Shown: piece after piece, positions 13,001 to 60,766 of the stretch
How the letters are laid out: the number at the start of each line of letters is the position of its first letter
How positions within the stretch are numbered: position 1 is the first letter of the stretch
Sequence record: PV419677.1
DNA from: a phage
Strand: one strand, 5' to 3'
Length of the DNA: 64,000 nt
Made by a program: the position numbers and the translations under genes
The notes under the pieces: generated by a model
What the model saw: the letters and a program-made list of their open reading frames with translations, nothing else
Databases searched by the model: none
Told to the model about the DNA's origin: nothing

Positions 13001-13801
13001 ATGGCAGTAGTTGGAGTTCCTGGCTGGATTGGAAGTTCAGCCGTAAATGAAACAGGACAACGATGGATGAGTCAAGCGGCTGGTCAATTAAGATTAGGTG
13101 TTCCTTGCTGGATGAGTCAATTTGCAGGTCGCTCAAGAGAAATTATTCACACGCTTGGAGCAGACCACAACTTTAACGGGCAATGGTTCCGCGACCGTTG
13201 CTTTGAAGCCGGTAGTGCGCCTATTGTTTTTAATCTTACAGGTACATTAGTATCTTATACCCGTGATGTTCCATTGTTCTTTATGTATGGGGATACTCCA
13301 AACGAATATGTTCAATTGAATATTGGTGGTGGGGTTCATATATGGGGCCGAGGTGGTCAAGGTGGATGGACCCACTCGGGTGGCGATGGCAACGGGCAAT
13401 GGGGTGGAACTTGTATTGTAAATGATATTGGCGGTCGTTTAAGAATTAATAATGGTGGGGTTATCTGCGGCGGTGGCGGCGGCGGTGGCGGCATCGCTTA
13501 TCGTCCTCACTCTGGTGCAAACTGGCAAGATATTGGTGGCGGTGGAGGAAGACCATTTGGCCTAGGCGGCGGTGGTGGATATTCAGGTGGCGGAGCTTCT
13601 TTGGATGGTCCAGGAGGTGGTTATCAATACGGAAATGCCCACTCTGGTCATGGTGGGGATGCCGGCGGAGCAGGTCAGAATGCATGGTCTGACGGTGGTA
13701 AAGTTCTAAAAGTCGGCGCTGGAGGCGGCGCAGGAGCTGCTGTTGCTGGAAGTTCTCCTACTTGGCATAATACAGGTGTTATCTACGGTTCCTGGCTATA
13801 G
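13001..13801 (+). CDS. 38: T2-type tail fibre adhesin gp38 (Gly-rich motifs flanking variable segments)
   Basis: 266 aa; conserved N-terminus, then multiple poly-Gly blocks (GGGGGGGG, GGGGG) separated by short variable segments. Confidence 0.85.
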
Positions 13802-22059: not shown

Positions 22060-22114
22060 AATGTCCTCATTTGTGTGTGAGGACATTATTACATGGTTGG
22101 TTCAGCTTGTAAAC
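22060..22114 (-). promoter_or_regulatory. early promoter
   Basis: minus strand GTTTACA -35, 16 nt spacer, TAATAAT -10. Confidence 0.45.
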
Positions 22115-22695
22115 CGGTGATAGGGAAATTTTTCTTCTGAACAAGAACGGAGGTACCAGCCATCCCCTTGTGACTTCTGCACAAGACCAGACTCAGGAAC
22201 GAAAGCGCCAGGTCCAGCAAGGAATTTTGGTTTAAATCTATAACCTTTGATAGTCTCTTTTACATCGAACATAATCATAAGGTCAGCAAGCTTGTGCTGC
22301 ATAAAAGGGCCAAGATTAACTCCGTAACCGTGTGGGTAATCGCCATGGCTGCCAGTGTGCACGGATATCCATTTGGAACCAGACTGATGGGTCTTGACTT
22401 CGATTCTTACCCCTTCCTTCGAAACTACATCAAATGCAAAGGAATAAGGATTATCGTAATCTTCATCGCCACCACATAAAAAACCGGAGGTCCATTTAGC
22501 AATAGCTTGTTCAGCCATTGTAGCCACCATACATCTTTGCATGACTTGCTCACGGTCCTGACCAGGGTCTTTACGCAATGAATACCTGGCAGTGTCTACA
22601 ATCTTTTGCAGGGATTCGGGGGTTAAGTCTTCTTTTGTATAAAGAAAGGAGGGCATCTTTTTCAGATGCTCCCATGTTTTACTCTTCTGAATCAT
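22102..22695 (-). CDS. putative PD-(D/E)xK-type nuclease (candidate denB-like)
   Basis: 197 aa; FAFDVV...RIEVKT resembles D...(D/E)xK nuclease core; lies near rIIB where T4 has denB; assignment tentative. Confidence 0.4.
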   Translation of the reverse strand: MIQKSKTWEHLKKMPSFLYTKEDLTPESLQKIVDTARYSLRKDPGQDREQVMQRCMVATMAEQAIAKWTSGFLCGGDEDYDNPYSFAFDVVSKEGVRIEVKTHQSGSKWISVHTGSHGDYPHGYGVNLGPFMQHKLADLMIMFDVKETIKGYRFKPKFLAGPGAFVPESGLVQKSQGDGWYLRSCSEEKFPYHRFTS

Positions 22696-39113: not shown

Positions 39114-39650
39114 TTAATAACCCCGGTCCTGACGAGCGAAGTTTTCAGCATTTTTCAGGTAATACAGTTTAAAGATTTCTTCTGCTGACAGACCAAGACC
39201 ATGGAACATGTTCAGAACAAAGTGCAGGATGTCAATCATCTCAAATTTAATTTCGAGCTGGTCTTCAGGAGACAACTCATCAATACGACGATTACGGAAT
39301 TCAGCATGTTGGGCTTTCCACGGTTTCCAACAACTTGAGGCTGCTTTCTCGCCATTAGACATACCCCCGAGAGAAGTCAGAAGTTCACGGAATTCATCAT
39401 CGACATAATCTTTCTGGTTGCGAAGCCATGCAACAACATCACCTGCAGTAGCCAATTCATCTGGATGTGAGTTATATTCAGGTTTTTCGGTAGCCAGACG
39501 AACTTGCAATGATTTCTGCATATCAAGCATAATCTGCAGCGGGTCAATACCTTTTGTAATTGCATTGTCATAAGCCAGAGCAGCTTTATCAACGCCAGCA
39601 ATCAGTTGTGAACATTCATTAAAATGAGCCATTATATTTTTCCTTATCAA
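39114..39650 (-). CDS. 56: dCTP pyrophosphatase gp56 (MazG-like)
   Basis: 178 aa; position between soc and 61; C-terminal ...FHFVLNMF..GL..EEIFKLYYLKN..NFARQDRGY as recalled for T4 gp56. Confidence 0.7.
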   Translation of the reverse strand: MIRKNIMAHFNECSQLIAGVDKAALAYDNAITKGIDPLQIMLDMQKSLQVRLATEKPEYNSHPDELATAGDVVAWLRNQKDYVDDEFRELLTSLGGMSNGEKAASSCWKPWKAQHAEFRNRRIDELSPEDQLEIKFEMIDILHFVLNMFHGLGLSAEEIFKLYYLKNAENFARQDRGY

Positions 39651-39717
39651 TTCATGTTATTTTGTATGTTAATTATATCATATTGGTTTGAAGCATAAAT
39701 ACACGGAAGGGGGATAT

Positions 39718-39915
39718 ATGCTCAAACTATCTAGTCTAATTCAAGCCATCAAAGGCAGTCGTAAGCGAACGATTCTGGTCCTTTCGATACTCTGTTTAGT
39801 TCTACTCTGGAACTTCGTTGTTGCCCCTGTTGCATTGACACATGGTGTTATATTACCAGTCATTGCACTCGAATCAGTTGTAGATATTTTACTGGCATTA
39901 ATCGGCCTTATATAG
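39718..39915 (+). CDS. hypothetical membrane protein (65 aa)
   Basis: plus-strand ORF from ATG at 39718 with GGAAGGGGG Shine-Dalgarno; two hydrophobic segments; opposite to flanking genes. Confidence 0.4.
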   Translation: MLKLSSLIQAIKGSRKRTILVLSILCLVLLWNFVVAPVALTHGVILPVIALESVVDILLALIGLI

Positions 39916-40033
39916 ATGGAATAATGTGAATATTATTCCATCGGATTTGGAAATTAACCAGTAAGAAAGACAAGAAACATCATGGGCTTTTTAGCTCTTG
40001 ATGTTTTTCTGCGGAACTTACCGGAATTCCTTC

Positions 40034-43866: not shown

Positions 43867-45306
43867 TTAAAATTTCATTTGAGCAGCAAGGTCATCCAGG
43901 TCGCTCCTGTTGACCCTGGTTTGTCGATTCATTTCGGCCTGGCGATTCATCTCACCGGTGGCTTCTTTAACCGTAGGGCCTTGTTTAGGAGCCGAATCAT
44001 CATCAACCTCATACCAGCGCTGATTACCTTTCTTAACACCCATCTTGAATTTATTATAGTAGTTCTTATCACCATAACGAGACTTAAGCTGTTTGATTAA
44101 CTGCAGCCCCATTTGAGCGAATTCTTCGGTCTCAACAACACCCAACATAAAGTCAGCCGTGTGAGCAATACCAAAGGATTCTGCAATGTCAGCCATATCA
44201 ATCTCGGCTGCAACGTTAGCGCCCCTGGTTGTCTGCGCTGCAGTCCACAAGACCACATTTTTCTCAACTGCCAACCCACGAAGTTCTTCTGCAACCATCT
44301 TAATCAGACCGTAACTGTTTTCGGTAAACGTTTTCAGTCTTGAGCTTGCACAGATTGCCAGGTAGTCAACAATAATCACATCCGGTACAAACCCTTGCTT
44401 CAGTTTGTATTCGTTCAGTAATGCACGGAAAGTATCCGCATGAGCACCACCAGTTGGATATTGTTTTATCTTCAGAGTCCCAAGAGTCCCGGAAGCACGC
44501 CATTTTTCCATCTTAGCTTTATATTCTGCCCATGATATATGACCTTCATCAATATCATCCAGAGACACATCCAGCAAGTTGGCATCAATACGTTTGGCAC
44601 ATACTTCTTCGGCCATTTCCATGCTTATATAAAGAACGTTATGACCAGTCTGAAGATAGTCAGCCGCTAACGAACAAAGTCCTAGAGATTTCCCGACGTT
44701 TGTCCCGGCCAGTAAAACGTTCTCTGTACCATACTCAACTCCACCCTTCGTGATTTTATTCAGGATGTTAATGCGGAACGGAACCTTTTTCGATTTGTTC
44801 AGATAAGTCTGGAATCGAGCTTCGTAATCGTTTAACCAGTCATGGCCCAGGGCAGAGTCAAAACAGATAGATAATGCATCACGCATGATATCAGGGATAG
44901 CACCAATATCCGGGATTCGTTTATCACGTTTATCTTTCGGAAGTTCGGCATTGCTCTGGATTTCGATAATCCTGGATGTAGCATTGAACATCGCAGACTT
45001 CTGTACATACTTCTCGGTTTCTCTAACCAACCATTCCTGGTCTTCTGGAGTATCGGCCAAGACTCCTAAGAGTTTCTTGGTGCCTTCATATTCAACTTCA
45101 GAAAGGTCAGAACTGTCGAGCGCGATATCAAGTGCAGTCTTAGTTGGCACCGCCTGATATTCTTTTACGTGTTCGTTAATCGTATTAAAAAGGGTCTTCG
45201 CTGGACCCTTTTCAAAATATGTGCTATTCAGATATGGCCAGACTTTAACAAAATATTCCTTGTTAAAGAGCAGCTGGGATAAAATAGTTTCTACCACTTC
45301 CACCAC
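43867..45306 (-). CDS. 41: replicative DNA helicase gp41
   Basis: 479 aa (T4 475 aa); DnaB-like; Walker A GTNVGKS. Confidence 0.9.
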   Translation of the reverse strand: MVEVVETILSQLLFNKEYFVKVWPYLNSTYFEKGPAKTLFNTINEHVKEYQAVPTKTALDIALDSSDLSEVEYEGTKKLLGVLADTPEDQEWLVRETEKYVQKSAMFNATSRIIEIQSNAELPKDKRDKRIPDIGAIPDIMRDALSICFDSALGHDWLNDYEARFQTYLNKSKKVPFRINILNKITKGGVEYGTENVLLAGTNVGKSLGLCSLAADYLQTGHNVLYISMEMAEEVCAKRIDANLLDVSLDDIDEGHISWAEYKAKMEKWRASGTLGTLKIKQYPTGGAHADTFRALLNEYKLKQGFVPDVIIVDYLAICASSRLKTFTENSYGLIKMVAEELRGLAVEKNVVLWTAAQTTRGANVAAEIDMADIAESFGIAHTADFMLGVVETEEFAQMGLQLIKQLKSRYGDKNYYNKFKMGVKKGNQRWYEVDDDSAPKQGPTVKEATGEMNRQAEMNRQTRVNRSDLDDLAAQMKF

Positions 45307-45635
45307 CTCTTTTTCATTTTAATCTTATCAATTTCATCTTGTATTTGCATTGTAACACACTTTTCTACATGCACTGCAAGCTCCGCTTTGCGGTCTTCAG
45401 AAGGGGTGCCGAAATCAACTGAAACTTTTCCCGATGGTTCAATTTTAATTCCGGTTACGTACACAATGTGATTGGACCCATCAGGGAGTGATAACAGAAT
45501 TTCCTGCCGTACAGTTCCCATGGATTGCCGGATAATCTCCAAACTTTTTTCGTAGTAAGGTACAGAAGGAGCCTTAGCTCCCTCCGCATCTTTCTCGAAA
45601 TTATCTAAATCAGATAAATCGATATCATTCATCAA
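45291..45635 (-). CDS. 40: probable head vertex assembly protein gp40
   Basis: 114 aa; position between 41 and uvsX; C-terminal KKRWWKW membrane-association-like tail. Confidence 0.55.
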   Translation of the reverse strand: MMNDIDLSDLDNFEKDAEGAKAPSVPYYEKSLEIIRQSMGTVRQEILLSLPDGSNHIVYVTGIKIEPSGKVSVDFGTPSEDRKAELAVHVEKCVTMQIQDEIDKIKMKKRWWKW

Positions 45636-46803
45636 GGTCTTCCATCATATCTAAATCGTTTTCGATATCTGCCGCAGATGGTTTTGCCTTACCTTCGGGA
45701 GCAGAGTATTTTTCAACCTTGGAGGCAATAAGCGCATCAACCTCGGCGTCAACAACAGCATTGCTATCGATTGCACCCAGCTGGTAATGTCGTTTGATTG
45801 CATCACGGAAAGGTTCGTGCTTGAACAACGGACCCCAGAATTCGGTACAGTTAGTATCTTTTGCACGCCATGATTTTTCTTCGCGGACCATTTCACCGGT
45901 CTCAACATCAAGATATTCACGGTTATACCAACCAACTTTCGGTTTCACCACAAATCCGATTTCCATTGCCATATCAAGCAGGCCAGAATACGGGTCAATA
46001 CCCCCATCGAATTTTACATCAATGAAGAATTTACTTTTCTCTTTGACCATACGAGATTTTTCGGCGTTCAGAACAAATTGGAAACCTTCAAGTTCTTTAC
46101 CGGTTTCTTTAATCTGGCGTTTGCCGATAATGAATACGGTGTCCGCAGAATACATAACACCTGTACCACCGGTCATAACGGTTTTGCTGTACATCTCAAT
46201 CGTCTCGATTGTATGGTTAACCGCGACACAAGGAATATCCTTGATACTAAAATATGGGGTAACAATACGGAACAGAGATTTCAGGGATTTAGCACGAGTC
46301 ATATCACCAACGACTTTTTCGTTCATCGCATCTTCTGTTTCTTTTTTCGACGCCATGTTACCGATTGAGTCAATAAAGATAATGACTTTTTCACCGCGCT
46401 CAATTGCTTCAAGCTGGTTAACCATATCAACTTTCAATTGTTCAACCGACTGGATTGGTGTGTGGATAACACGCTCCGGGTCTACTTTCATTGCACGCAG
46501 ATAGGCCTCTGTGATACCAAATTCTGAATCGTAGAACAAACAGATTGCGTCGGGGTATTTGTTCATATATGCAGAGACCATCGTTAAACCCATATTGGAT
46601 TTAAAGTGTTTTGACGGACCAGCAAAAATAGTCAAACCTGACTGCATACCACCATCTAGTGCACCGCTGATTGCAATGTTCAGCATCGGGATTTTTGTAC
46701 GAACTACATCTTTATCATTAAAGAACTTGGACTTGGTAAGAGTCGCGGTCATTTTGGATGTAGAAGCTTTAATCAAACGGGATTTCAAATCTGCAATAGA
46801 CAT
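45625..46803 (-). CDS. uvsX: UvsX recombinase (RecA-like)
   Basis: 392 aa (T4 391 aa); Walker A GPSKHFKS; long collinear match. Confidence 0.9.
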   Translation of the reverse strand: MSIADLKSRLIKASTSKMTATLTKSKFFNDKDVVRTKIPMLNIAISGALDGGMQSGLTIFAGPSKHFKSNMGLTMVSAYMNKYPDAICLFYDSEFGITEAYLRAMKVDPERVIHTPIQSVEQLKVDMVNQLEAIERGEKVIIFIDSIGNMASKKETEDAMNEKVVGDMTRAKSLKSLFRIVTPYFSIKDIPCVAVNHTIETIEMYSKTVMTGGTGVMYSADTVFIIGKRQIKETGKELEGFQFVLNAEKSRMVKEKSKFFIDVKFDGGIDPYSGLLDMAMEIGFVVKPKVGWYNREYLDVETGEMVREEKSWRAKDTNCTEFWGPLFKHEPFRDAIKRHYQLGAIDSNAVVDAEVDALIASKVEKYSAPEGKAKPSAADIENDLDMMEDLDE

Positions 46804-46888
46804 TCATTTTTTCCATAGGCACCATTATATTTTTCTCACAGGTTTAAGATAGGATAATTATATCACTGTATTTTTAGAGCAATTAATG

Positions 46889-47392
46889 TTAGTTAATACC
46901 TTGGCGTGCTTTCTCTTTAGCTACACATTTATTAATATAGCTCAGACGGTTTTGAGCAGAACGCTGATACATATCACGATACTCATTAGCTTTTGGAGAA
47001 CCAGCCTCTGCTGCCTGATAAGCTTCCGCGCGCATGATGTTTATCTGCATATTGATGTATGACATGCAGACCTGTGAAATCTGGTTAACAGTATCCAGGT
47101 CATTTTGGCGCTTGGTTTCTGCTTCCAGTTTAGCAATGATTTCGTCATGCTTCGCAGCTTGTTCGCGTTTGTACTCAATTTCACGTTGAGCATATTTCGC
47201 GCAGTTATTTCCACATTGATTGTTGTCGCGTTTGTAGATAAGTCCAGTACCACCTTTGAAATCAAAGGAACCATTATGCACCTGACGGTCTGCAGCAATT
47301 CGCGCTTTACCAATCTCATTGGCATTAACAACATCGCCCTGGTAAGCACAACCAGATAGCAGCATAACAGCTGCGATAGCTAACTTTTTCAT
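46889..47392 (-). CDS. putative lipoprotein
   Basis: 167 aa from ATG at 47392 (GAGGA Shine-Dalgarno); signal peptide with lipobox LSGC; occupies T4 beta-gt/42 slot. Confidence 0.6.
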   Translation of the reverse strand: MKKLAIAAVMLLSGCAYQGDVVNANEIGKARIAADRQVHNGSFDFKGGTGLIYKRDNNQCGNNCAKYAQREIEYKREQAAKHDEIIAKLEAETKRQNDLDTVNQISQVCMSYINMQINIMRAEAYQAAEAGSPKANEYRDMYQRSAQNRLSYINKCVAKEKARQGIN

Positions 47393-47402
47393 TGTATTTT
47401 CC

Positions 47403-47546
47403 TCAATTAAAACATTCATAGCGGGCTTGGAGTCCCAAAAATATCCAACCCAAAATTAAAGTTGGAGTCATATGTGGAGTCATTATTGCCCAATAGATTG
47501 ACATACTAAAAAATGCAATCAGTACAATAATTGTAATTATCTTCAT
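47403..47546 (-). CDS. small membrane protein (47 aa)
   Basis: ATG overlaps imm stop (ATGA); hydrophobic. Confidence 0.35.
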   Translation of the reverse strand: MKIITIIVLIAFFSMSIYWAIMTPHMTPTLILGWIFLGLQARYECFN

Positions 47547-47785
47547 TTGGTTTCCTTGATGATAATTACATGTGCATTTGATTTACGCTCAGCAACGAGT
47601 GCCCAGATAAATGCAATAAACCATCCGACCATTGTCCAACCTAACAGGAGGTTAACAAAGAAGATTCCGCAATTACTTTTGGTTCCTCGCAGTAGCGCGA
47701 TAATCCACGGCAGAAAATATGCCAGTGCAGCCAGGAAGAAAGAACCAGCACCAAGAACAACAGTACCTGCAATTAATGTTTCCAT
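47543..47785 (-). CDS. imm: superinfection immunity protein Imm
   Basis: 80 aa; two TM segments with YFLPWIIA...LLLGWTMVGWFIAFIWAL signature of Imm family. Confidence 0.8.
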   Translation of the reverse strand: METLIAGTVVLGAGSFFLAALAYFLPWIIALLRGTKSNCGIFFVNLLLGWTMVGWFIAFIWALVAERKSNAHVIIIKETK

Positions 47786-47805
47786 TTTAATATCCTTAAT
47801 TTAAT

Positions 47806-47856
47806 CATCAGTAGTTGATGGAGTAATCATACGGCAATCCTTTGCTGTTGTAAACA
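47806..47856 (-). promoter_or_regulatory. early promoter upstream of imm
   Basis: GTTTACA-N17-TATGAT and AUCAACUACUGAUGA leader. Confidence 0.5.
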
Positions 47857-47857
47857 C

Positions 47858-48864
47858 TTAAAAATCAAACATATCAAAAAGAGATGCTTTTTTCTCGTAA
47901 TCAACCTTAGCTGCTTCAGAGAACCCTGTTAACGGTTTGACAAAAGTCTTCTGGAACAGTGTGTTGTAGTCCATCCACTGCAAGACTTGGTCACGGATTT
48001 CAATCGGGAGTTCAATCCCAGATGGCCATGCAATCACGGTTTCACCAAACGGGTTGCCGACTTTAAGAGGAAGTACATACACCTTTTCCCCTTCCATGAT
48101 TTGTGGAACAGTCTTCAGACCTTTAGTTGCACGCATATATGCAAGCACACCTTTGATATGAGCCGGGCACTTAAATCCAGGGAAACCACCCTCATTATAT
48201 TTCTGAATGTTGTTAACCGATGATACACCTGCGATGGTCATGTAGTTAAGCTCATTAAATTCCTTATTGAATTCCTTGAAGTATGTCTGCAGAGATTCTT
48301 CACCTTCTTGCAGCATGCGACGGATACATTCTTTCAGAGCTTTCTGACATGCTTTTGGTGTGCTCGACTTTTGAGTTTCCAGACCCATGATTTTCAGTTT
48401 CGGAACAGCATATCGTGTGCCTTCCATATCGTACACATTCAGAGCATAACGCTTCTTCGCTGTCCAGAATCCACCAACACCTTTAGAACCAAGCGGAGGA
48501 CATGCAATCGCTTCACGGTCCATAAACATAAGGTGCTGTTTGTTGTTCATGTATTCAGCCAGTTCACGGAAAGCTTTATCGATTGCCGGTTCCAGACGGT
48601 CTTTCGCAAACTTGTCCATGAAGTCAACCAGGTGGTTTGTATCGCGGAATTTCGATTCGCCACCAACCTTTTTAATCAGGTTATCGCACTGGATATAAAT
48701 GGAGTCAGTATCGCCATAGAATACATATGTTTCACCACTTGTACCACAAACACTATCAAAATATTCGTTAACTTTACGCTCAATCCACTGCAATGCAAGT
48801 TGTCCGAAAGATGTAATCGCGGTTGCATTTCGCAGGTCAAAGTAACGGAACCAGATATTTCCCA
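47858..48864 (-). CDS. 43: DNA polymerase gp43, subunit 43B exon 2 (motif C YGDTDS to C-terminus)
   Basis: frame begins GNIWFRYFDLRNATAI..., contains YGDTDS; collinear with T4 gp43 residues about 560-898. Confidence 0.8.
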
Positions 48865-49095
48865 CAATTTTGTTCAGTTGAAGTCGTTAATTTCAACCCG
48901 GAATTATATCCAGCTGCATGTTGCCATGCAGAGCAGACTATATCATCATCTTTCGATGCCATGCGCTTCCAGCCACTTGGCTGTACTCCTTTCGGATAGT
49001 CGTTGCACGTTCCTATAATAGGCTTCGCTCAGGATTGTCTCATAGAGATGTCCCCTGAATTCACATGGTTTAAAGTGCGCCGGAATACTTGGTTA
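48865..49095 (-). mobile_element. candidate ORF-less group I self-splicing intron in gene 43
   Basis: 231 nt between ...CYGA/L and GNIW...; P1 (exon GUGCGU : intron GCGCAC, U.G at splice site), P7 (GACUA / UAGUC within GAUAUAGUC), GNRA hairpin, terminal G; splicing restores frame. Confidence 0.55.
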
Positions 49096-49267
49096 ACGCA
49101 CCATAACAACTGTTGATAAGCAATTTGCGGTTAATCTGTGCAGTATTTGCCGCAATTTCTGCCATTTGCGAATTATGCAAATGACTTTCCAAATCCGCCC
49201 TTGATAATGTTTTTAAATATGCAATTTGCGAATCATCAAAATCTATATTATAATCAATATTCATCAT
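49096..49267 (-). CDS. 43: DNA polymerase gp43, subunit 43B exon 1 (motif B region)
   Basis: MMNIDYN...NRKLLINSCYGA matches T4 gp43 around KILINSLYGALG; ATG overlaps stop of the homing endonuclease gene. Confidence 0.7.
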
Positions 49268-50082
49268 TTATTCCTACAGTTATCAAAATGCCAACGTTTC
49301 ATGCCTGCTAATATACCTTCTTTTCCACAATGTGGACAAACTGCTTTAACCTCTTTTGCTTGTTTCCAATATTCCTTTCTGGCATCAGAAATAGCTTGAT
49401 TGTGTTCATCTGAATTTTTGTGTCCCAATCTGGTTTTAACGATATCTGGATTTTTAGCAACACGTTCTTTCATAAACTCAGATTTCGCTGCACGCATTTC
49501 TGGTGTCCAGGCATCGGAGCATTTTTGTTTGTGGTCGTCGGATATAGTTCCATTTTTCAGCACAGACTCATTGTTCTTATAATGTTCAATTAAACTTTGT
49601 GAACGTTTTTGACAAGTTTCTACCGAGTGTTTTGTTCCAGTATTTTTAATTGAGGCGATTTTAAAATTATCAATTGAAATTTTATTGTAATAATCTGGAT
49701 TTTGGGCCCGGGTATATTTGATACTATCGGAAACCTTTTTGGCAACTACTGGATTATGCATCGCATTTGGTAAATTTAAAGAATTGACATAATCCCACCC
49801 ACCTTTACCACCTGGGGTTAAATTATATGTGTCAGTACGTGTGATAAATTCATTATCAACTAATTTGGCTTCAAGTGCATATGCATCATCTTCGTTATCA
49901 AATTCAGCAATGATTGATTTGACCAGGTTATGCTTGCCATATTTTTCTTTCGCAGCTTTCACAATGGGACCCGAACCCAGATAATCATCCAACAAATTAT
50001 AAGATTCACATTTATGAACTCCAATGTAAATCTTATCGTTCACTAAATTTTTAATTTGATAAACAGTGTATACATTTTTCAT
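49264..50082 (-). CDS. GIY-YIG homing endonuclease inserted in gene 43
   Basis: 272 aa; VYTVYQIKNLVNDKIYIGV GIY-YIG motif, NLTPGGKGG, C-terminal zinc finger CPHCGKEGILAGMKRWHFDNC. Confidence 0.8.
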   Translation of the reverse strand: MKNVYTVYQIKNLVNDKIYIGVHKCESYNLLDDYLGSGPIVKAAKEKYGKHNLVKSIIAEFDNEDDAYALEAKLVDNEFITRTDTYNLTPGGKGGWDYVNSLNLPNAMHNPVVAKKVSDSIKYTRAQNPDYYNKISIDNFKIASIKNTGTKHSVETCQKRSQSLIEHYKNNESVLKNGTISDDHKQKCSDAWTPEMRAAKSEFMKERVAKNPDIVKTRLGHKNSDEHNQAISDARKEYWKQAKEVKAVCPHCGKEGILAGMKRWHFDNCRNK

Positions 50083-50094
50083 AATGTCTCCTTA

Positions 50095-50135
50095 ATTTAA
50101 AAATATTTTAGCGCGCTTCCTTGCGCTTGTACAAC
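50095..50135 (-). promoter_or_regulatory. promoter-like element for homing endonuclease gene
   Basis: minus strand GTTGTACA...TAAAAT then GGAGA Shine-Dalgarno inside 53-nt spacer between 43A stop and endonuclease ATG. Confidence 0.35.
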
Positions 50136-51659
50136 TTAAAGATGGTTTAAAAGGTCTTTAATCAATTCACTATTACGTTGTGCCGCCAACATCTTTTTCT
50201 TTTCGGTTTTTCGTTGATTAAAAACTTTCTCAACTTCTGTCGGAATAATACCTGCAACATCTTTAAAATACATCATGCCATTTGGAGCACAACTAAATGT
50301 ATCAGATGGACGGTCAGCAGTTCCTGCGATGTATTCATACATCGGCGCAGGAGCAAATGAACCGGCAATCGTTTCTGGACTGATGTTAATCTGTCGGATG
50401 ATGCTCGGATACAGAGATGTCAAGTCACAGCTCATAACGTATTTGTATGCGTTCGGAATCGGTTCCTTAACAAATGCACCAGGGAATGATTGACGAACAT
50501 GCGATTTGGTTTCCGGAATGACTTTGTTTTGAGTCTTCAGGCTGTTAAAGATAATCGCATCCCAAGTTTTGATTGGGCTGAATACAGACTGAATCTGCAT
50601 TTTTGCGTAATAACCCATTGACTGGCTAAGGTTAATAAACTGGCGCTTACGGTCAATCTGTACAACACGATAAACATCGATGATGTTATAAGAAATATAC
50701 CGTTGGTGATTTGATTCACGCAGTTTAGAAATCGGACCATCATACGGGAGTTTACCAACACCCAGCTCAGATTCCGCAACATAATCCAACGAATAAGACG
50801 GTTGGTTTGTGAAGCTGAACTTTTTATACAGGTCCAGATAATCCAGAACAGAGATACCCAGAATCTGAATGATTTCTTGTTCTTCACCAAAGCCGTTGTT
50901 AATTACTTTAACTTTTGTACGACGATGTGGGCTCAGACGTTTTGCTGTGGCTTCACCAAATACATTTTTAAGGCGGTTGTAGATATACGGAATATCAAAC
51001 TTCTCGATGTTCCAACCAGTTAACATAACCGGAGTTTTCTCGTTCCAGAATACCAAATACTGCTGGAGCATTTCTTCTTCTGAATCGAAAGCCATATAAA
51101 CAATTTTTTCCAGGATTTCTTCAGGGACTTCATCGCCGCCATCTTCTTGCAGCTTGGCAGCAATATCAATAGACCATTGCTCCACAGTGGCGTATGGTGA
51201 GCTCAAAAGGTCAAAGACATAGAATTTATCGTCTACCGAATCATAGTGCGTCAGGGCATCAATAGGGTGACGTGCTTCAGACGGCTCAGGGAACCCATCC
51301 GGAGATGTCACCTCGATATCGAAGTTAGCCACACGGATTTTACTTGAATCGTATTTGATTTCGTGTGGATAACGGTCGGACAAGTATGCGAGTTTAAAGT
51401 CATCCATACCCATAGCTTCGAGACCCATGTCATTCATTCGCTTCATCCACTGGGATGCATCACGCATGGAATCGAATTCTTTTTTCACACAACCTTTATT
51501 ATAGATGTCTGTATACTTTGCAGCCTGGTCTTCGCGAGCATGCATAAACAAGCATGGAGCATAAGGGATTTCACGAACACGTTCATGACCATTCTTGTCA
51601 ATGTATCGTTCAAGCAGATTGTCACCGATTTGTTCGATAGTTAAATAAAATTCTTGCAT
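50136..51659 (-). CDS. 43: DNA polymerase gp43, subunit 43A (exonuclease and palm motif A)
   Basis: 507 aa; collinear with T4 gp43 N-terminal about 510 residues incl. FDIEVT, SLYPSIIRQ; ends with stop before the motif B region. Confidence 0.9.
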   Translation of the reverse strand: MQEFYLTIEQIGDNLLERYIDKNGHERVREIPYAPCLFMHAREDQAAKYTDIYNKGCVKKEFDSMRDASQWMKRMNDMGLEAMGMDDFKLAYLSDRYPHEIKYDSSKIRVANFDIEVTSPDGFPEPSEARHPIDALTHYDSVDDKFYVFDLLSSPYATVEQWSIDIAAKLQEDGGDEVPEEILEKIVYMAFDSEEEMLQQYLVFWNEKTPVMLTGWNIEKFDIPYIYNRLKNVFGEATAKRLSPHRRTKVKVINNGFGEEQEIIQILGISVLDYLDLYKKFSFTNQPSYSLDYVAESELGVGKLPYDGPISKLRESNHQRYISYNIIDVYRVVQIDRKRQFINLSQSMGYYAKMQIQSVFSPIKTWDAIIFNSLKTQNKVIPETKSHVRQSFPGAFVKEPIPNAYKYVMSCDLTSLYPSIIRQINISPETIAGSFAPAPMYEYIAGTADRPSDTFSCAPNGMMYFKDVAGIIPTEVEKVFNQRKTEKKKMLAAQRNSELIKDLLNHL

Positions 51660-52910: not shown

Positions 52911-53893
52911 TTCATTTCCCCAGCCAGTTGAGCAAACAGATAAGTCAAGTGAACTTCGGTATTGGCCGCAATGCCATGGTACTGATTATTCTCACCTACA
53001 ATCTCATACATGCGGATGATACTTGCACCAGTCAGTTTGCCATACATTTCATCAGCCAGCTTTGCAATGAAGCTTGAATAATCATTTGCATGCTTAGGAG
53101 CCAGACCACGGAGAACTTTAAAGTTACGGTCCTTAAGGGCATCAATCACATCATCAATTGGCGTGCGATTGTTTGTCACGATACTCAGAATACCAGAATC
53201 GATAACACCCTTTGCAGAGTAACGGTCAAGCTCGTTAATTGTCTTACGCAGGTCCGGGAAGTTATGCTTAACCAGAGCAGCAACAACTTTCAGGTCTTCG
53301 ATTTCAACGCCTTCGTTTTTACATATCGCAACCGCACGATGAATCATCTCTTTCATCATAGTAGTCTGGTCAGCTGGAGTTGCTTCACCAAACTTAATTA
53401 CGCGACAACGAGACTGCAACGGAGTAATGATGCCATCGATATTGTTCGCGGTCATAATGATTGAACAGTTGCTCGAATAAGCTTCCATAAAGCTACGGAG
53501 GTGTCGTTGTGATTCTGCCAGACCTGCACGGTCGAACTCATCGATAACAATTACCTTACGGCGACCTTCGATTGATTTGGATGATGCAAAGCGAGTCAAT
53601 TCATTACGCACAAAGTCAATTCGGCAATCGGAGCCGTTAACAAACAGCATATCAGAATTCGTATCTGCGCACATAGCTTTTGCAACTGTTGTCTTACCAG
53701 TACCAGGGGAACTACTGACCAGAATCAAGTTAGGAATCAAACCTTTTTTAACAATCGCCTCTAATGTTTCTTTATCGTGAGCCGGGAGAATACACTCTGA
53801 TAATGTACCTGGGCGGTATTTTTGTTCCCACATGAAGTCGGATTCGTTGACTGTCAAACCGTTAATTACTGTTGCCATTATTATTTTCCTCAT
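52901..53893 (-). CDS. 44: clamp loader large subunit gp44 (AAA+)
   Basis: 330 aa (T4 319 aa); Walker A SPGTGKTT. Confidence 0.9.
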   Translation of the reverse strand: MRKIIMATVINGLTVNESDFMWEQKYRPGTLSECILPAHDKETLEAIVKKGLIPNLILVSSSPGTGKTTVAKAMCADTNSDMLFVNGSDCRIDFVRNELTRFASSKSIEGRRKVIVIDEFDRAGLAESQRHLRSFMEAYSSNCSIIMTANNIDGIITPLQSRCRVIKFGEATPADQTTMMKEMIHRAVAICKNEGVEIEDLKVVAALVKHNFPDLRKTINELDRYSAKGVIDSGILSIVTNNRTPIDDVIDALKDRNFKVLRGLAPKHANDYSSFIAKLADEMYGKLTGASIIRMYEIVGENNQYHGIAANTEVHLTYLFAQLAGEMKWL

Positions 53894-54440
53894 TAAATTT
53901 TTTAACTATTTTATTCAATTCATTGGCTGAATAATTATACCCATAGTTCCGCAAAAGCGTACTGAACTTACCGCGCTTTGGTTTATCCAGCTCTATCCAA
54001 ATTTTTAACAGTTCATCATAGTGATTCCAAACTTCAGAACGCTGCCATAACGAACAATTCAATTTATGTGTTTTACTAAATGTTCGAGATACACCAGTAC
54101 GTGATTCAGACATTTGTCTACGAGTTTCTTCTGTATGAAAATCAACTCCACCATTACCGCCTGGATGAACATTAACACATTTATTTCCATATTCAATAAG
54201 ACCTTTGGCAACAATCAAAGATTCATAGTGTTTAGCTTCTTTGAAAGTTTTTACTTCTTTAATAATTTTTGTATCGAATAACCAAAGCCCAGGAATTAAA
54301 TCATTTTCTTTTCGACAAGCTTTAATAAACGTTCCACTGCCGTGATATTCTTCACCGGTCAAACGATGTCTACCAAAATAATGATAAACATCGTTTGATG
54401 CAGTATTTGTTATTTTTGTATGATAACAAATGTATGACAT
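53862..54440 (-). CDS. putative GIY-YIG (Seg-like) homing endonuclease between 45 and 44
   Basis: 192 aa from ATG at 54440 (GGAGA Shine-Dalgarno); SYICYH...VYHYFG and VHPGGNGG resemble Seg-family motifs; overlaps gp44 start by 32 nt. Confidence 0.5.
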   Translation of the reverse strand: MSYICYHTKITNTASNDVYHYFGRHRLTGEEYHGSGTFIKACRKENDLIPGLWLFDTKIIKEVKTFKEAKHYESLIVAKGLIEYGNKCVNVHPGGNGGVDFHTEETRRQMSESRTGVSRTFSKTHKLNCSLWQRSEVWNHYDELLKIWIELDKPKRGKFSTLLRNYGYNYSANELNKIVKKFNEENNNGNSN

Positions 54441-54471
54441 TTTATTCTCCATGGGGCCGAAGCCCCATTTA

Positions 54472-55167
54472 TTAATCTTGGAATTCGTGGCTAGAGCCTT
54501 GTTCCATCGCAATCACATAGCTTGCTTGTGTGCCTTCAAACTTCGTAGCAAATTTATCATCTTTCGCCCAAAGCATAACACGGTAATCAGCCGGAATCAT
54601 TTTCATGTTCAGTTTGTTAATGATAAATTTAAACGCTGCATCGCCTTCGTAGTCGCCACATACCAGGGAATACAATGGACGTGCTAATTCTTTATCTTCG
54701 AGCTGGTTATAACCATGGATAACAATCTTACCGTCTTTGTTGGTGATTGCAAAGGTGTCCAGAGACAAACCACCAGCCACACGCAGAAGCTGCTGCAGGT
54801 CACTACCTTTCAGGTCGAAAATAACCTTAGCTACCGGGAAAGGAATCTTTTTAGCAGGGAACACGATAGTGCTCGGGTCTGCAGCTGGCCAGTGAATCGT
54901 TGAACGTTGGTCTTTGATAATGATGTTTGATGCGTCTTCAGCCAGAGATACTTCAGCTTGGTCAGTTACCAGGCCCAGGATACTTAAGAAGCCGTTCAGG
55001 TCATAAATCGCAGCTTCAAAGTCAATTGTATCATTGATTTCGGCTTCGCCATATGACGCTCCAGTTACGGAACGAGTCAGGATGGTATTACCTGGCTTAA
55101 GCATAATGCCAGAGTAAATGGAAGTAAAGTTTTTCAATACCGCGATTGTGTCCTTTGAGAATTTCAT
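54472..55167 (-). CDS. 45: sliding clamp gp45
   Basis: 231 aa (T4 228 aa); N-terminus MKFSKDTIAVLKNF...IYDLNGFL matches recalled gp45. Confidence 0.9.
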   Translation of the reverse strand: MKFSKDTIAVLKNFTSIYSGIMLKPGNTILTRSVTGASYGEAEINDTIDFEAAIYDLNGFLSILGLVTDQAEVSLAEDASNIIIKDQRSTIHWPAADPSTIVFPAKKIPFPVAKVIFDLKGSDLQQLLRVAGGLSLDTFAITNKDGKIVIHGYNQLEDKELARPLYSLVCGDYEGDAAFKFIINKLNMKMIPADYRVMLWAKDDKFATKFEGTQASYVIAMEQGSSHEFQD

Positions 55168-55663: not shown

Positions 55664-55882
55664 TTAATCAAAGTATTCATATGCGAACCAGGCATTGTGT
55701 CTGTTCGCGATTATTTTAACATATTCTTCACCGAAAGCGTTTTGCAAGTCACGTTCAGTGACAAGGTGTTCATCTTTCGAAAAGGTATTAACTAACACAT
55801 ACCGTTTAATTTCAGGGACAGCCAGTAAATGCTGCCCGGTTAAAAAATTGCTCATAAATAATATTATCCGTTGCAGTATCAA
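55664..55882 (-). CDS. hypothetical protein
   Basis: 72 aa. Confidence 0.4.
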   Translation of the reverse strand: MILQRIILFMSNFLTGQHLLAVPEIKRYVLVNTFSKDEHLVTERDLQNAFGEEYVKIIANRHNAWFAYEYFD

Positions 55883-58550: not shown

Positions 58551-59566
58551 GGTTGCACCTCAAGATATAATTTGTTGGCCAATGCTTTAAGAGCTTTTGA
58601 TTCTTTCTCATTGGTGTCAGGTAATGCATCAATATATTCTGCCATCATATCAGTTAAGCGTTTTATGTCTAACTCTTCTTCGGAGTCAGTCGTATCAACA
58701 CTGTTATCAACCTTATTGACAACACGCAATTCATGTACACGCTTTTCTAATTCAGATTCGAACTTGGTCAGGTCTTTATCGACTTTTTCTACAATAACAC
58801 GGACTGATAAGTCTTTGAAGTCGTCGTAGTTAATAGTTTCGTTTGGATAGAAAATCTTCCGATGCCAGGTGGTTTCATTCGGAATAAATTTCATCTCTTC
58901 GGTTTCTGTATCAAATTCCCAGAATCCGCGCGGGTCATTCTCATCACCTGCTGTTAATGTCCATGGTGTCCCGATGTACTTAACGTTTGCAGCTTCTGAA
59001 ATGGTATGAAAGTGACCAGACCAAACTTGCTTGTACTTCTTAAGGAAATCAGGCTCAAGCCCGTGGGATTTCAATCCTTTATAGAAATAAAACCCGGTTA
59101 ATTCCCAGTGACCGATGCAATATTCAGCCCCAGAAGTTTTGATGTGTTGATGAATGTCAGTTGCGTTCTCGTCGCACATCCATGGAATCATATCAATCTG
59201 GCAACCGTCAAAATCAACAGTCGTTGGCTTATCATAGATTTTAACATGGTCATACTTATTCAGGAGTTCAGTGATAGCATTAGGATGAATCTTATTCTTC
59301 AGATTCATGTCATGGTTCCCGACTATCGTGTGCATAGTAATTCCTGCTTCACGAAGGAGTTCCATAATCTCACGGCTGAATTCCATTGTCTTATGCGTTA
59401 CGGCCTTACGGACGTCAAAAATATCACCATATTGAATCCAGACTTTAATCCCATTCGCTTTGGAATATGCAATCGCCTGTAAAATACCATCGCGTTGAAT
59501 GTTTTGAGCCCATGGGTCGTCAGCTTTGACACCCAAGTGCCAATCACCTAAATTTAAAATTTTCAT
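58547..59566 (-). CDS. 47: recombination endonuclease subunit gp47 (Mre11-like)
   Basis: 339 aa from ATG at 59566, same length as T4 gp47; phosphoesterase motifs LGDWHLG, GNHD. Confidence 0.9.
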   Translation of the reverse strand: MKILNLGDWHLGVKADDPWAQNIQRDGILQAIAYSKANGIKVWIQYGDIFDVRKAVTHKTMEFSREIMELLREAGITMHTIVGNHDMNLKNKIHPNAITELLNKYDHVKIYDKPTTVDFDGCQIDMIPWMCDENATDIHQHIKTSGAEYCIGHWELTGFYFYKGLKSHGLEPDFLKKYKQVWSGHFHTISEAANVKYIGTPWTLTAGDENDPRGFWEFDTETEEMKFIPNETTWHRKIFYPNETINYDDFKDLSVRVIVEKVDKDLTKFESELEKRVHELRVVNKVDNSVDTTDSEEELDIKRLTDMMAEYIDALPDTNEKESKALKALANKLYLEVQP

Positions 59567-59706
59567 AAGCCAAGCGCCGTTATCGCAGTGCAAAATAAAA
59601 TTATTGAAATGAACCCGTCAGGAGTAGAAAAGAATCCTATCCAACAAGCTCGTGTGAATGTGTAGAATGCCATGAATAACACGACATATCCTAAAAATAA
59701 TTCCAT
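59563..59706 (-). CDS. small membrane protein (47 aa)
   Basis: GAGGAGA Shine-Dalgarno; stop overlaps gp47 ATG (ATGA); hydrophobic. Confidence 0.4.
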   Translation of the reverse strand: MELFLGYVVLFMAFYTFTRACWIGFFSTPDGFISIILFCTAITALGL

Positions 59707-59751
59707 ATGTTCTCCTCAGTTGGTTCATTTTATCATCCCGAATATAAAGCA

Positions 59752-59783
59752 AAAAGGAAGCACTAGGCTTCCTTTCCAATTAA
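59752..59783 (-). terminator. putative rho-independent terminator
   Basis: AAGGAAGC-CUAGU-GCUUCCUU hairpin plus U-rich tail overlapping end of 57-aa ORF. Confidence 0.45.
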
Positions 59784-59936
59784 TACACCGTACAGAGGTT
59801 CGTGAGAAGACCTGAACTTGATAGGCTTATAGGTAATAGTACCTTCATTTTCTGCTTTAATGCGAGCGGCTTCAAATTGAAGTATCATCTCATTTTTGTC
59901 AGATTTAATCTTATCAAAATCCGTCGAATTCGTCAT
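59763..59936 (-). CDS. hypothetical small protein (57 aa)
   Basis: ATG with AAGAGG Shine-Dalgarno; in T4 alpha-gt slot. Confidence 0.35.
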   Translation of the reverse strand: MTNSTDFDKIKSDKNEMILQFEAARIKAENEGTITYKPIKFRSSHEPLYGVLIGKEA

Positions 59937-60017
59937 TCATAAAACCTCTTAAACTTTTTCGTATTCGTCATGCATAAGCTTAAAAATCCGGGTGTTCGTC
60001 TTCAAAGCAACCGATAT

Positions 60018-60218
60018 TCATCGCTGCCACCATTTCTTAAGTTGATGTGAATCCACCCAAACCTTGGCCACGGGCTCAATCTGAAAAATACCATCAGAAT
60101 ACTGCCCAACCATTTTATATTCGGTTTCAGTCTGCTTGATACAGATATTACCATATGAGCGAAGTCTGAAAGCGGCTCCAACAAGAAGCCGTTTAAAAGG
60201 TTTATTTACTAATGCCAT
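60018..60218 (-). CDS. hypothetical protein
   Basis: 66 aa; alternative frame ORF 60002..60184 also possible. Confidence 0.3.
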   Translation of the reverse strand: MALVNKPFKRLLVGAAFRLRSYGNICIKQTETEYKMVGQYSDGIFQIEPVAKVWVDSHQLKKWWQR

Positions 60219-60513
60219 TTACGATTTCCCAAATTTGTTTGCGAGTAGTTTCCCACATCAACTTAATCAGGTCTTCCGTAACTGGTTGGCGGTAAATTCC
60301 ACGCAGTTTAACTAAAGCATATTTGTATGCTTCAAAATTGTTTTCCAGCACTGCCCCTTGAGCATGCTTATTCAGTCGTGCAATTTCACGAGCATTCTTT
60401 TTCAGAATCTTTGCTGCTTGACTCTGTGCTTCGAGTGCGTTCGCTTCTTCGAGACGTTCCTGTGCTTCTTCAATCTGCTTATCGGTCAGTTGAGAAATAT
60501 CTGGAGCTTGCAT
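60202..60513 (-). CDS. hypothetical protein
   Basis: 103 aa, helical composition. Confidence 0.45.
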   Translation of the reverse strand: MQAPDISQLTDKQIEEAQERLEEANALEAQSQAAKILKKNAREIARLNKHAQGAVLENNFEAYKYALVKLRGIYRQPVTEDLIKLMWETTRKQIWEIVNGISK

Positions 60514-60514
60514 A

Positions 60515-60766
60515 TTAATCCTTGGGAGTTAACTCAATTGTAAAATATAGATTAGCATTATCCACATGATAACGGTAATCAACGTTATTATCCGGTGAAG
60601 TAAATTCCAGATTCCGGACGTTTAAAGGGTCGATATCAATTGGAAGACCTTTTATGTCTCGCAGATAAAGTTTAATGAAATATGGGAGCGCAGTAAAGTC
60701 TTCCTCGATTTTATCTAAAAAATCGGTAATATCAAATTGATGTTCCATATAAAAAATCCAAATCAC
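60515..60766 (-). CDS. hypothetical protein
   Basis: 83 aa. Confidence 0.4.

Follow-up and report, generated by a model that had tools for sequence, protein, structure and literature searches.

The Gaprivervirus lineage no longer carries a slot-encoded cytosine hypermodification module, and dam is also missing. We estimate a probability of roughly 60% that Td, the product of td, which has an aspartate at position 177 (Escherichia coli ThyA numbering), makes 5-methylcytosine (5mC) in these phages and that their virion DNA most likely carries this base, which would explain both the empty slots and the retention of genes directed against ordinary deoxycytidine (dC). The alternative modification is most likely determined by the td locus, located outside the slots and outside the stretch of DNA analyzed here (64,000 nucleotides of record PV419677.1, hereafter the window). 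The paradox of a missing hydroxymethylcytosine (hmC) synthase alongside anti-dC functions was already flagged, without a solution, in papers from 2021 and 2025 (PMC8056088, PMC12115623); what is new here is the Asp177 Td, which the sequences suggest as a testable lead.

The window is a segment of a T4-like Gaprivervirus resembling SP18 and VR7. Over positions 44000-48865, its DNA is 96.5% identical to that of SP18 and 96-98% identical to that of its Gaprivervirus relatives, and its proteins mostly share 90-100% identity with those of SP18. The isolate carries insertions without counterpart in these relatives, and those that interrupt its gene 43 were found in no record of the phage collection examined. 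A novel enzyme among the window-specific ORFs was ruled out, as Pfam and PHROGs scans identified all of them as homing endonucleases or conserved unknowns.

The minus strand of the uvsX-imm slot reads uvsX, a lipoprotein ORF, a 47-aa membrane ORF, imm, and gene 43, a layout that is identical in SP18, VR7, VR20, VR25, and VR26; the gene order over 45625..47785 confirms the preliminary description of the window, according to which this slot holds only a lipoprotein and a 47-aa membrane protein. One border is uvsX (45625..46803, minus strand), encoding a recombinase with 99% identity to SP18 UvsX and 79% to T4 UvsX, and the other is the DNA polymerase gene 43 (47858..51659, minus strand), which is interrupted twice here. 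An 85-bp junction (46804..46888) is found where T4 has segA, b-gt, and 42 and where JS98 has the 4.2-kb cluster gp038-gp042. It is followed by a predicted lipoprotein with the lipobox LLSGC (46889..47419, minus strand; probable start at ATG 47392, giving 167 aa), a homologue of VR7 ORF049c and of JS98 gp043 (52% identity, E=1e-49). This protein belongs to PHROG 1754, of unknown function, shows weak similarity to the N-terminus of T4 Imm.1, and has a dN/dS of 0.04-0.11. The 47-aa membrane protein (47403..47546, minus strand) is homologous to T4 gp42.1, RB69 orf054c, and JS98 gp044 (56% identity) and falls in PHROG 3610 (E=1e-25); its VR7 homologue is annotated 42.1 and tblastn gives a match in the 42-imm spacer of T4. 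The superinfection immunity membrane protein Imm (47543..47785, minus strand) shares 51% identity with its T4 counterpart and 67% with that of JS98.

The two other slots show the same pattern. In T4 the three slots contain segA/b-gt/42, a-gt/mobB, and dam, so the modification genes had been correctly assigned to them beforehand. The 47-55 interval (59563..60766, minus strand) has the five small ORFs that had been described, i.e. homologues of 47.1, a-gt.2, a-gt.3, a-gt.4, and a-gt.5 (59563..59706, 59763..59936, 60018..60218, 60202..60513, and 60515..60766), without a-gt and mobB. The 47.1 homologue is 78% identical to T4 47.1 (tblastn), and the a-gt.2 to a-gt.5 homologues, with 41-58% identity to T4, agree with the SP18 and JS98 annotation. 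The 56-61 interval (39633..40033) lacks dam and contains, again as described, a single plus-strand ORF (39688..39915, 75 aa), which is conserved, with 85% identity to the SP18 region and 49% to the T4 dam-61 spacer; its VR7 counterpart, ORF033w, is annotated as RB32 ORF030w-like. The slot ORFs are therefore not the unrelated fillers they had been taken for, since they correspond to conserved neighbours of T4 and/or JS98 (gp42.1, 47.1, a-gt.2-5, ORF030w-like, and JS98 gp043), left in place at sites without modification genes or homing endonucleases.

Searches for the missing genes covered the window and the complete SP18 genome. With T4 gp42, a-gt, b-gt, and dam, tblastn returned no match at E<1, and phmmer --max with T4 42, a-gt, b-gt, dam, and JS98 gp038-042 against the six-frame ORFs of at least 50 aa returned nothing better than E=0.1. 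In both sequences the dCMP hydroxymethylase gp42 gave only E>=0.2 with phmmer --max and E>1 with tblastn, the alpha- and beta-glucosyltransferases gave no match at E<0.29 in any frame, and neither a Dam-family N6-adenine methyltransferase nor a match to JS98 gp038, gp039, gp040, gp041, or gp042 was detected. The only gene recovered by the modification-gene queries was td, which rules out relocated copies in the window and SP18. A simple rearrangement, with 42, gt, and dam elsewhere in the genome of the isolate, was considered because only 64 kb of ~170 kb is visible and because the isolate has insertions absent from its relatives. We find this scarcely credible, as the genes are undetectable in complete SP18, VR7 lacks 42, gt, and dam across 22 kb covering the three slots, and according to published surveys the hmC synthase is absent from the genus as a whole (PMC8056088, PMC12115623).

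The sister genus Dhakavirus, grouped with Gaprivervirus in a 2021 pan-genome analysis (PMC8056088), illustrates what the uvsX-imm slot may contain. In JS98 it holds a five-gene arabinosyl-5-hydroxycytosine cluster, gp038-gp042, encoding an arabinosyltransferase, a 5-hydroxy-dCMP synthase, a nucleotide kinase, a phosphatase, and a uridylyltransferase/kinase (PMC13326640), and the blastn alignment between the window and JS98 resumes on either side of this cluster. JS98 and RB69 (Dhakavirus/Mosigvirus) share with the window the slot borders, the gp043/gp044/imm trio, the absence of dam, and the avoidance of GATC, but the cluster is wholly missing here. A 5-hydroxy-dCMP synthase is recognizable as a ThyA homologue with Asn169, whereas the sole ThyA homologue of Gapriverviruses has Asp169.

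Gapriverviruses share with T4 (Tequatrovirus, glucosyl-5-hydroxymethylcytosine) the backbone, the order of genes, the small neighbours 42.1, 47.1, and a-gt.2-5, and gp56, gp1, Cd, Frd, DenA, DenB, and Alc, but gene 42, alpha-gt, beta-gt, dam, and arn, all present in T4, are absent; no arn homologue was found. The gp56 dCTPase/dUTPase (39117..39632, minus strand; Pfam dUTPase_2), whose retention had been noticed from the outset, is highly conserved, with 68% identity to T4, 84% to JS98, and 118 invariant columns across four phages. Endonuclease IV, dC-specific in T4, is encoded by denB (22102..22695, minus strand; PHROG 1360, E=9e-80). It is intact, although its sequence has diverged to an unusual degree (45-49% identity to T4 and JS98 DenB, compared with 72% between those two) and extends 13 aa further at the C-terminus; all 66 invariant columns are nevertheless present, including T4 Ser176, and a dN/dS of 0.095 versus SP18 indicates purifying selection. 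While gp56 and denB are encoded in the window, intact copies of alc and denA occur in SP18. The alca/alcb split in SP18 does not signify a dead alc, as alca encodes a full-length Alc of 167 aa that aligns with T4 Alc over 166/167 residues. The dNMP kinase gp1, Cd, and Frd are also retained. Because the anti-dC and nucleotide-pool genes have been kept, we consider that some non-canonical form of cytosine must still be present in the DNA.

Direct information on Gaprivervirus DNA comes from VR7. Gordeeva et al. 2018 describe VR7 DNA as unglycosylated, say that it "has modified cytosines", list VR7 apart from hydroxymethylated T4(147), and mention assays with the 5mC-sensitive enzymes EcoRII and SalI and with Csp6I and pre-treatment with T4 BGT. 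The literature searched on Gaprivervirus DNA chemistry and on 5mC in T4-like phages yielded nothing beyond this restriction statement.

T4 with dC DNA requires the inactivation of 56, denB, and alc. This requirement speaks against a phage that no longer modifies cytosine and fills its capsids with ordinary dC DNA, with gp56 acting only as a dUTPase and with DenB and Alc retargeted or neutralised. The strong divergence and C-terminal extension of DenB would fit such a scenario, as would the persistence of gp56 homologues in T4-like genera for which Table 4 of PMC12115623 scores hmC synthase, DenB, and Alc as absent. T4-like phages with unmodified dC would, however, be expected to lack alc and denB, and here both are present and intact, in agreement with the genus table of PMC12115623; both appear to be under purifying selection (dN/dS measured for denB), DenB retains Ser176, and the VR7 cytosines are reported to be modified (Gordeeva et al. 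2018). CCGG, GCGC, GGCC, and CGCG are, moreover, not avoided (observed/expected 1.01-1.13). We therefore give ordinary dC very little credence.

Site avoidance in general was discarded as a proxy for unmodified DNA, since it does not discriminate: C-containing palindromes are as common as in T4 and JS98; GATC, CATG, and CTAG apart, the 4-mers among them show no avoidance, and GATC alone is strongly depleted. GATC is nearly absent, with 2 sites observed versus ~230 expected (76 versus 226 in T4), and we propose that the loss of dam is tolerated because the genome has been purged almost completely of this site.

Gapriverviruses have a single ThyA-family gene, td, which is located ~3.4 kb upstream of where the window begins and adjoins frd (DHFR), which overlaps it; cd (dCMP deaminase) is present in SP18 and VR7. 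The motif GLPFNIASY of E. coli ThyA and JS98 Td reads GLPFDIGSY in SP18. Every Gaprivervirus sequence that was examined, SP18 and vB_YenM_P8 among them, has Asp177, which occurs in 4/4 Td clusters of the genus (79 member sequences) and in VR7, VR20, VR25, and VR26, whereas Asn177 is found in 114 further Td cluster representatives; JS98 and Bp7 have Asn177. The td of the window's own genome probably encodes Asp177 too, judging from relatives that are 96-98% identical over 44000-48865. Across 23 catalytic or ligand-binding positions, 177 is the only one that differs from ordinary T4-like thymidylate synthases, and the catalytic Cys146, Asp169, and the C-terminal residues are kept. Along its whole length the protein shares 64-70% identity with genuine Tds, td has a dN/dS of 0.02-0.04, and 36 further substitutions are clade-specific. 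Mutagenesis reported in 1992 showed that Asn177->Asp changes the substrate of thymidylate synthase to dCMP in place of dUMP, with 5mdCMP as the product, and among modified metavirome contigs Asp177 is overrepresented (PMC8670742). The preliminary description had left a choice between modification genes elsewhere in the genome and a different DNA modification. Its second option is supported by the retention of gp56, DenB, Alc, and DenA, by the modified, unglycosylated cytosines reported for VR7 (Gordeeva et al. 2018), and by the Asp177 Td; its first is not, as complete SP18 contains no homologue of 42, gt, dam, or the JS98/RB69 arabinosylation genes.

In the pathway that we propose, gp56 would convert dCTP and dCDP to dCMP, and Td(Asp177), by analogy with the N177D and N229D mutants, would convert dCMP and CH2-THF to 5-methyl-dCMP and DHF, with Frd recycling DHF. 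The action of gp1 and host Ndk would then provide 5-methyl-dCTP, from which gp43 would polymerize DNA with 5mC in place of C, and the dC-containing host DNA would remain a target of DenA, DenB, and Alc. We infer each of three elements of this scheme, namely the chemical identity of the base as 5mC, the pathway flux, and the protection that 5mC would give DNA against DenB and Alc. Host ThyA and/or deamination of 5-methyl-dCMP by Cd could supply dTMP. The proposal has a cost, i.e. a phage without its own dUMP-directed thymidylate synthase.

Td(Asp177) could alternatively be a dCMP hydroxymethylase, an analogue of gene 42 yielding naked 5-hydroxymethylcytosine without glucosylation. T4 gp42 likewise has Asp at the position equivalent to 177, and Gordeeva et al. 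2018 reported VR7 cytosines as modified but unglycosylated; the same study, however, lists VR7 apart from T4(147), which is termed "hydroxymethylated", after T4 BGT. This alternative appears quite improbable given the identity to genuine Tds and the conservation of the C-terminal and all other examined catalytic residues, the formation of 5-methyl-dCMP by the engineered N177D and N229D enzymes (PMC8670742), and the overlap of frd with td, which fits DHF production. Leu143 was dropped as a decisive predictor of methyl versus hydroxymethyl transfer, as Xp12 has Asn at 143.

Synthesis of 5mC by an Asp177 enzyme has a likely natural precedent in Xanthomonas phage Xp12, the DNA of which contains 100% 5mC by LC-MS, non-glycosylated. 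Asp177 is present in the only ThyA homologue of this phage, which is accompanied by a dCMP deaminase and a DHFR, functions also found in Gapriverviruses, and the combination of Asp177 with an intact Cys146 occurs in all Gapriverviruses examined. Xp12 is nevertheless an unrelated siphovirus and its enzyme, with ~31% identity, also differs at 143 and 147, whereas the Gaprivervirus enzyme is a T4 Td orthologue changed at 177 within a T4-type dCTPase/DenB/Alc system. The engineered E. coli N177D and Lactobacillus casei N229D enzymes (PMC8670742), which make 5mdCMP, have the same substitution in an otherwise complete active site; these are laboratory mutants, while the Gaprivervirus change is natural, genus-wide, under purifying selection, and accompanied by the other clade-specific substitutions.

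The Acinetobacter phages 133 and ZZ1 present the same paradox, having no gp42-like gene yet Alc, DenB, and dCTPase (PMC8056088). In each of the two, the Td has Asp177 and is accompanied by Alc and DenB; gp56 was confirmed in 133, and no second ThyA homologue was found within the 100 kb of 133 examined. These phages belong to other subfamilies and infect other hosts, Acj133 Td is 51% identical to SP18 Td, and GATC is avoided in Gaprivervirus but not in Acj133. The closest Asn-type relatives of the 133 and ZZ1 Tds are from Acinetobacter phages, indicating that Asp177 arose separately, and comparison of these sequences makes it most likely that the change in Acj133 is independent of that in Gaprivervirus.

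This recurrence bears on another explanation, in which non-ThyA enzymes hidden among the small ORFs produce the non-canonical cytosine and Td-Asp177 is incidental or auxiliary. Krischvirus SAP, a T4-like phage, has modified cytosines (glucosylated methyl-dC) with no recognizable pathway genes, neither a synthase nor a transferase being detectable, dozens of Gaprivervirus ORFs have no assigned function, and an "unknown protein" was invoked in the papers of 2021 and 2025 (PMC8056088, PMC12115623). We judge this explanation rather unlikely: it leaves Asp177 in three separate paradox lineages unexplained, and VR7 DNA is reported to be unglycosylated (Gordeeva et al. 2018). In addition, according to annotation tables, SP18 ORFs of at least 180 aa all have a JS98, T4, or RB69 homologue and those without a noted homologue are all below ~150 aa.

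On balance, we lean toward the view that in Gapriverviruses and, independently, in the Acinetobacter 133/ZZ1 lineages, cytosine is fully replaced by 5mC through one natural Asn177->Asp switch, a recurrent route in which sugar modules are discarded and the anti-dC arsenal is kept; Gapriverviruses would then be the first all-5mC E. coli phages. One difficulty is that 5mC DNA is a substrate of the E. coli enzymes McrA, McrBC, and Mrr, although Xp12 DNA, which is fully 5mC, is cut only weakly in vitro by McrBC. If the proposal is correct, sensitivity to 5mC-dependent restriction (McrBC, MspJI-type) would be expected, as would escape from defences against glucosyl- or arabinosyl-cytosine, which bears on the choice of therapeutic phages. 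Coliphages that are easy to grow would then supply both DNA fully substituted with 5mC and a dCMP methyltransferase, and pipelines that name every PF00303 protein "thymidylate synthase" would be masking a functional class. The paradox would be resolved for three phage lineages, and a natural path of nearly one residue from thymidylate synthase to dCMP methylase would be documented.

The sequence between 44000 and 50000 matched 603 phage records by megablast; the top match was Yersinia phage vB_YenM_P8 (98.3%), and Escherichia and Shigella phages followed at 96-98%, among them Shigella phage SP18, the type of the genus Gaprivervirus in the Tevenvirinae. A greedy ORF map against SP18, JS98 (a Dhakavirus) and T4 showed the window's early and replication region to be T4-type and collinear, with the order gp32 - 59 - 33 - rnh - tail fibres - motA - 52 - ndd - denB - rIIB - rIIA - 39 ... 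56 - 61 - 41 - 40 - uvsX - imm - 43 - 62 - 44 - 45 - 46 - 47 - 55. The host-range module (9729-13801) is swapped relative to SP18: its gp37 is 76% identical to that of JS98 over 727 aa and merely 33% to that of SP18, and its adhesin ORF (13001..13801) is of the JS98/T6 type (79% identity), the SP18 counterpart being absent.

In T4, the uvsX-imm interval is occupied by segA, b-gt and 42, the 47-55 interval by a-gt and mobB, and the 56-61 interval by dam. Here, an 85-bp junction separates uvsX (45625..46803) from a lipoprotein ORF (46889..47419, real start probably 47392), beyond which lie a 47-aa membrane ORF (47403..47546), imm (47543..47785) and gene 43; the 47-55 interval holds five small ORFs, and a single plus-strand ORF occupies the interval between 56 (39117..39632) and 61. 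T4 gp42, a-gt, b-gt and dam gave no tblastn match at E<1, either in the window or across the four loci that make up the complete genome of SP18, the relative on which the complete-genome search was run, and phmmer --max found nothing better than E=0.1 among all six-frame ORFs of at least 50 aa. The absence of these genes from the slots, as the preliminary description had it, was thus borne out, and this observation, as first stated, is already documented in the literature. Slot contents are identical in SP18, VR7, VR20, VR25 and VR26, so the empty slots are a property of the genus and not a peculiarity of this isolate.

The occupants had been described as unrelated small genes, which does not hold, since they match neighbours in T4, JS98, RB69 or VR7. 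The lipoprotein is a homolog of JS98 gp043 (52% identity; PHROG 1754) with weak similarity to the T4 Imm.1 N-terminus, and the 47-aa protein is homologous to JS98 gp044 and RB69 orf054c (PHROG 3610), its VR7 homolog being annotated as T4 gp42.1. Both genes are under purifying selection (dN/dS 0.04-0.25). The five 47-55 ORFs correspond to the T4 genes 47.1 and a-gt.2 to a-gt.5, and the plus-strand ORF is conserved in SP18, VR7 (annotated RB32 ORF030w-like) and the T4 dam-61 spacer. In JS98, the uvsX-imm slot contains gp038-gp042 followed by gp043, gp044 and imm. From their RB69 homologs, gp038-gp042 are an arabinosyltransferase 1, a ThyA-like 5-hydroxy-dCMP synthase, a Tmk-like kinase, a sugar phosphatase and a uridylyltransferase/kinase, which jointly make up the arabinosyl-5-hydroxycytosine pathway (NAR 2026, PMC13326640). 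None of these five has a homolog in the window or SP18, whereas gp043, gp044 and imm do; on this comparison, the slot in Gapriverviruses thus has the look of a T4-like one with the entire modification module missing.

No Dam homolog was found in the window or in complete SP18, and hardly any GATC sites are present: 2 in the window (11785 and 12805, both in tail-fibre gene 37) versus ~230 expected, 5 versus 596 in SP18, and 8 versus 313 in 95 kb of JS98. Depletion is far milder in T4 (76 versus 226 in 69 kb) and is not seen in Acinetobacter phage 133 (Acj133; 364 in 100 kb), and C-containing 4-mer palindromes other than GATC, CATG and CTAG are not depleted. The GATC pattern fits the classical picture of selection against this site in those enterobacterial phages that have no Dam of their own.

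DNA polymerase gene 43 (47858-51659, minus strand) is interrupted twice. Its first part, 43A (50136..51659, 507 aa), terminates in a stop codon and is followed by a GIY-YIG homing endonuclease ORF (49264..50082), a short exon for residues 516-570 (about 49094..49267), with only 56% identity to SP18, a compact group I intron (48914-49127; Rfam RF00028, 81 bits) within polymerase motif B (KLLINSCYGAL|GN), and the last exon (47858..48865). These insertions are absent from every Gaprivervirus in the phage collection; phage vB_EcoM_G2285 has the closest similar intron (78% identity), likewise in its polymerase gene, and the 43A/43B split point of Acj133 coincides with that found here. Further homing endonucleases, with no SP18 counterpart at the same place, are an HNH/AP2-type between denB.1 and rIIB (23154-23645, minus), a Seg-like between 44 and 45 (53862-54512, minus) and a MobB-like HNH between 45.2 and 46 (55695-56612, plus); a fourth (1000-1671, minus) corresponds to SP18/T4 segG between 32 and 59 but has diverged (72% identity over 114 aa).

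In T4, loss of gene 42 is tolerated only when 56, denB and alc have been inactivated as well. Nevertheless, SP18 retains gp56, gp1 dNMP kinase, Cd, Td, Frd, DenA, DenB and full-length Alc. The window's gp56 shares 84% identity with that of JS98, and 118 alignment columns are invariant across four phages; DenB keeps all 66 of 66 invariant positions (dN/dS 0.095), including T4 Ser176, a residue reported as critical for cleavage specific to dC. Nikulin and Zimin (2021) pointed out that Gapriverviruses and Acinetobacter phages 133 and ZZ1 keep these genes without a known enzyme for a non-canonical base (PMC8056088); a 2025 paper in this line of research states that the base "is currently unknown" (PMC12115623), and we found no later resolution in the literature searched.

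Gaprivervirus DenB (22102-22695) is itself an outlier, 45-49% identical to T4 and JS98 DenB, which share 72%, and has a 13-aa C-terminal extension with all invariant residues intact. The nearby motA and gp52 share this divergence, suggesting that the segment is mosaic and differs in ancestry. The gp56 alleles also differ within the genus: that of the window is 87% identical to SP18 and about 70-72% to VR7 and VR26, VR26 gp56 is 80% identical to T4 gp56, and a segF homing endonuclease adjoins VR7 gp56, suggesting endonuclease-driven allele exchange at this locus.

We aligned the product of SP18 td with E. coli ThyA, JS98 Td, T4 gp42 and JS98 gp039. SP18 Td, the sole ThyA-family protein of SP18, has Asp at the position of E. 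coli ThyA Asn177 (GLPFDIGSY versus GLPFNIASY), as do T4 gp42 and the 5-hydroxy-dCMP synthase JS98 gp039; among 23 catalytic or ligand-binding positions, 177 is the sole difference from JS98 and RB68 Td. In a search with SP18 Td, all four Gaprivervirus-type clusters (86-100% identity, 79 members including vB_YenM_P8) have Asp, whereas, after an identity gap, 114 of 116 T4-like clusters at 64-70% have Asn. One exceptional cluster, P0069, with Asp177, comes from a T4-like metagenomic contig, lies between frd and frd.x genes and has many of the 37 Gaprivervirus-specific substitutions. VR7, VR20, VR25 and VR26 all have Asp (td dN/dS 0.02-0.04). As td lies outside the window, we infer Asp177 for this genome from its relatives.

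Mutagenesis in 1992 showed that changing Asn177 to Asp makes dCMP, in place of dUMP, the substrate of thymidylate synthase, yielding 5mdCMP, and Asp177 marks metavirome contigs with modified cytosines (eLife 2021, PMC8670742, which summarises the 1992 work). Xp12, whose DNA contains 100% 5-methylcytosine by LC-MS, has a single ThyA homolog, with Asp177, adjoining dCMP deaminase and DHFR; Gapriverviruses share this trio, with td overlapping frd, plus cd.

Asp177 is found in each of the three lineages highlighted in 2021. The Acj133 motif is GKPFDIASY, in the only ThyA homolog of the 100 kb examined, which also encode Alc, DenB and gp56 and have small ORFs only in the uvsX-imm slot; ZZ1, of a different subfamily, has GMPFDIASY with frd adjoining, as well as alc, denB and cd. 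Lineages with gp42 or 5-hydroxy-dCMP synthase have a Td with Asn177. Acj133 Td is 57-62% identical to the Asn-type Tds of other T4-like phages of Acinetobacter, compared with 51% to SP18 Td and 53% to JS98 Td, and the change therefore most likely arose more than once. Asp occurs in 9 of 118 Acj133 Td homologs. Two viral contigs, one uncultured T4-like and the other unrelated (SRR24146912_91236 and IMGVR_UViG_3300023503_000001), encode ThyA homologs with Asp177 and an otherwise TS-like motif; this scattered class is routinely annotated as thymidylate synthase.

In the proposed pathway, gp56 would convert dCTP and dCDP to dCMP, Td(Asp177) would convert dCMP and CH2-THF to 5-methyl-dCMP, with Frd recycling DHF, gp1 and host Ndk would make 5-methyl-dCTP, and gp43 would build 5mC DNA. 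Host dC DNA would then be the sole target of DenA, DenB and Alc, with 5mC DNA presumably immune to DenB and Alc. The dTMP could come from host ThyA, T4 td mutants being viable on thyA+ hosts, or from Cd acting on 5-methyl-dCMP, as has been described in Xp12-infected cells.

VR7, a Gaprivervirus whose slots and Asp177 we checked, was used by Gordeeva et al. (2018), who report its cytosines as modified and unglycosylated. Restriction with EcoRII and SalI (blocked by 5mC) and Csp6I (blocked only by glycosylation) was combined there with T4 beta-glucosyltransferase pre-treatment, and a supplementary legend reads [quoted passage not shown]. Such a result, a modified cytosine free of glycosylation and not listed as hydroxymethylated, is the one expected of 5-methylcytosine. 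Against this reading, E. coli McrA, McrBC and Mrr attack 5mC, and no arn homolog was found; McrBC, however, cuts fully methylated Xp12 DNA only marginally in vitro. Krischvirus SAP also shows that T4-like phages can have hidden modification pathways.

The suggestion in the preliminary description that a different modification is used is thus supported by the retained gp56, DenA, DenB and Alc, by Asp177 in relatives and by the modified cytosines of VR7. Td(Asp177) offers a specific and apparently unpublished explanation of the paradox, a candidate ThyA-family dCMP methyltransferase within a T4-type anti-dC system.
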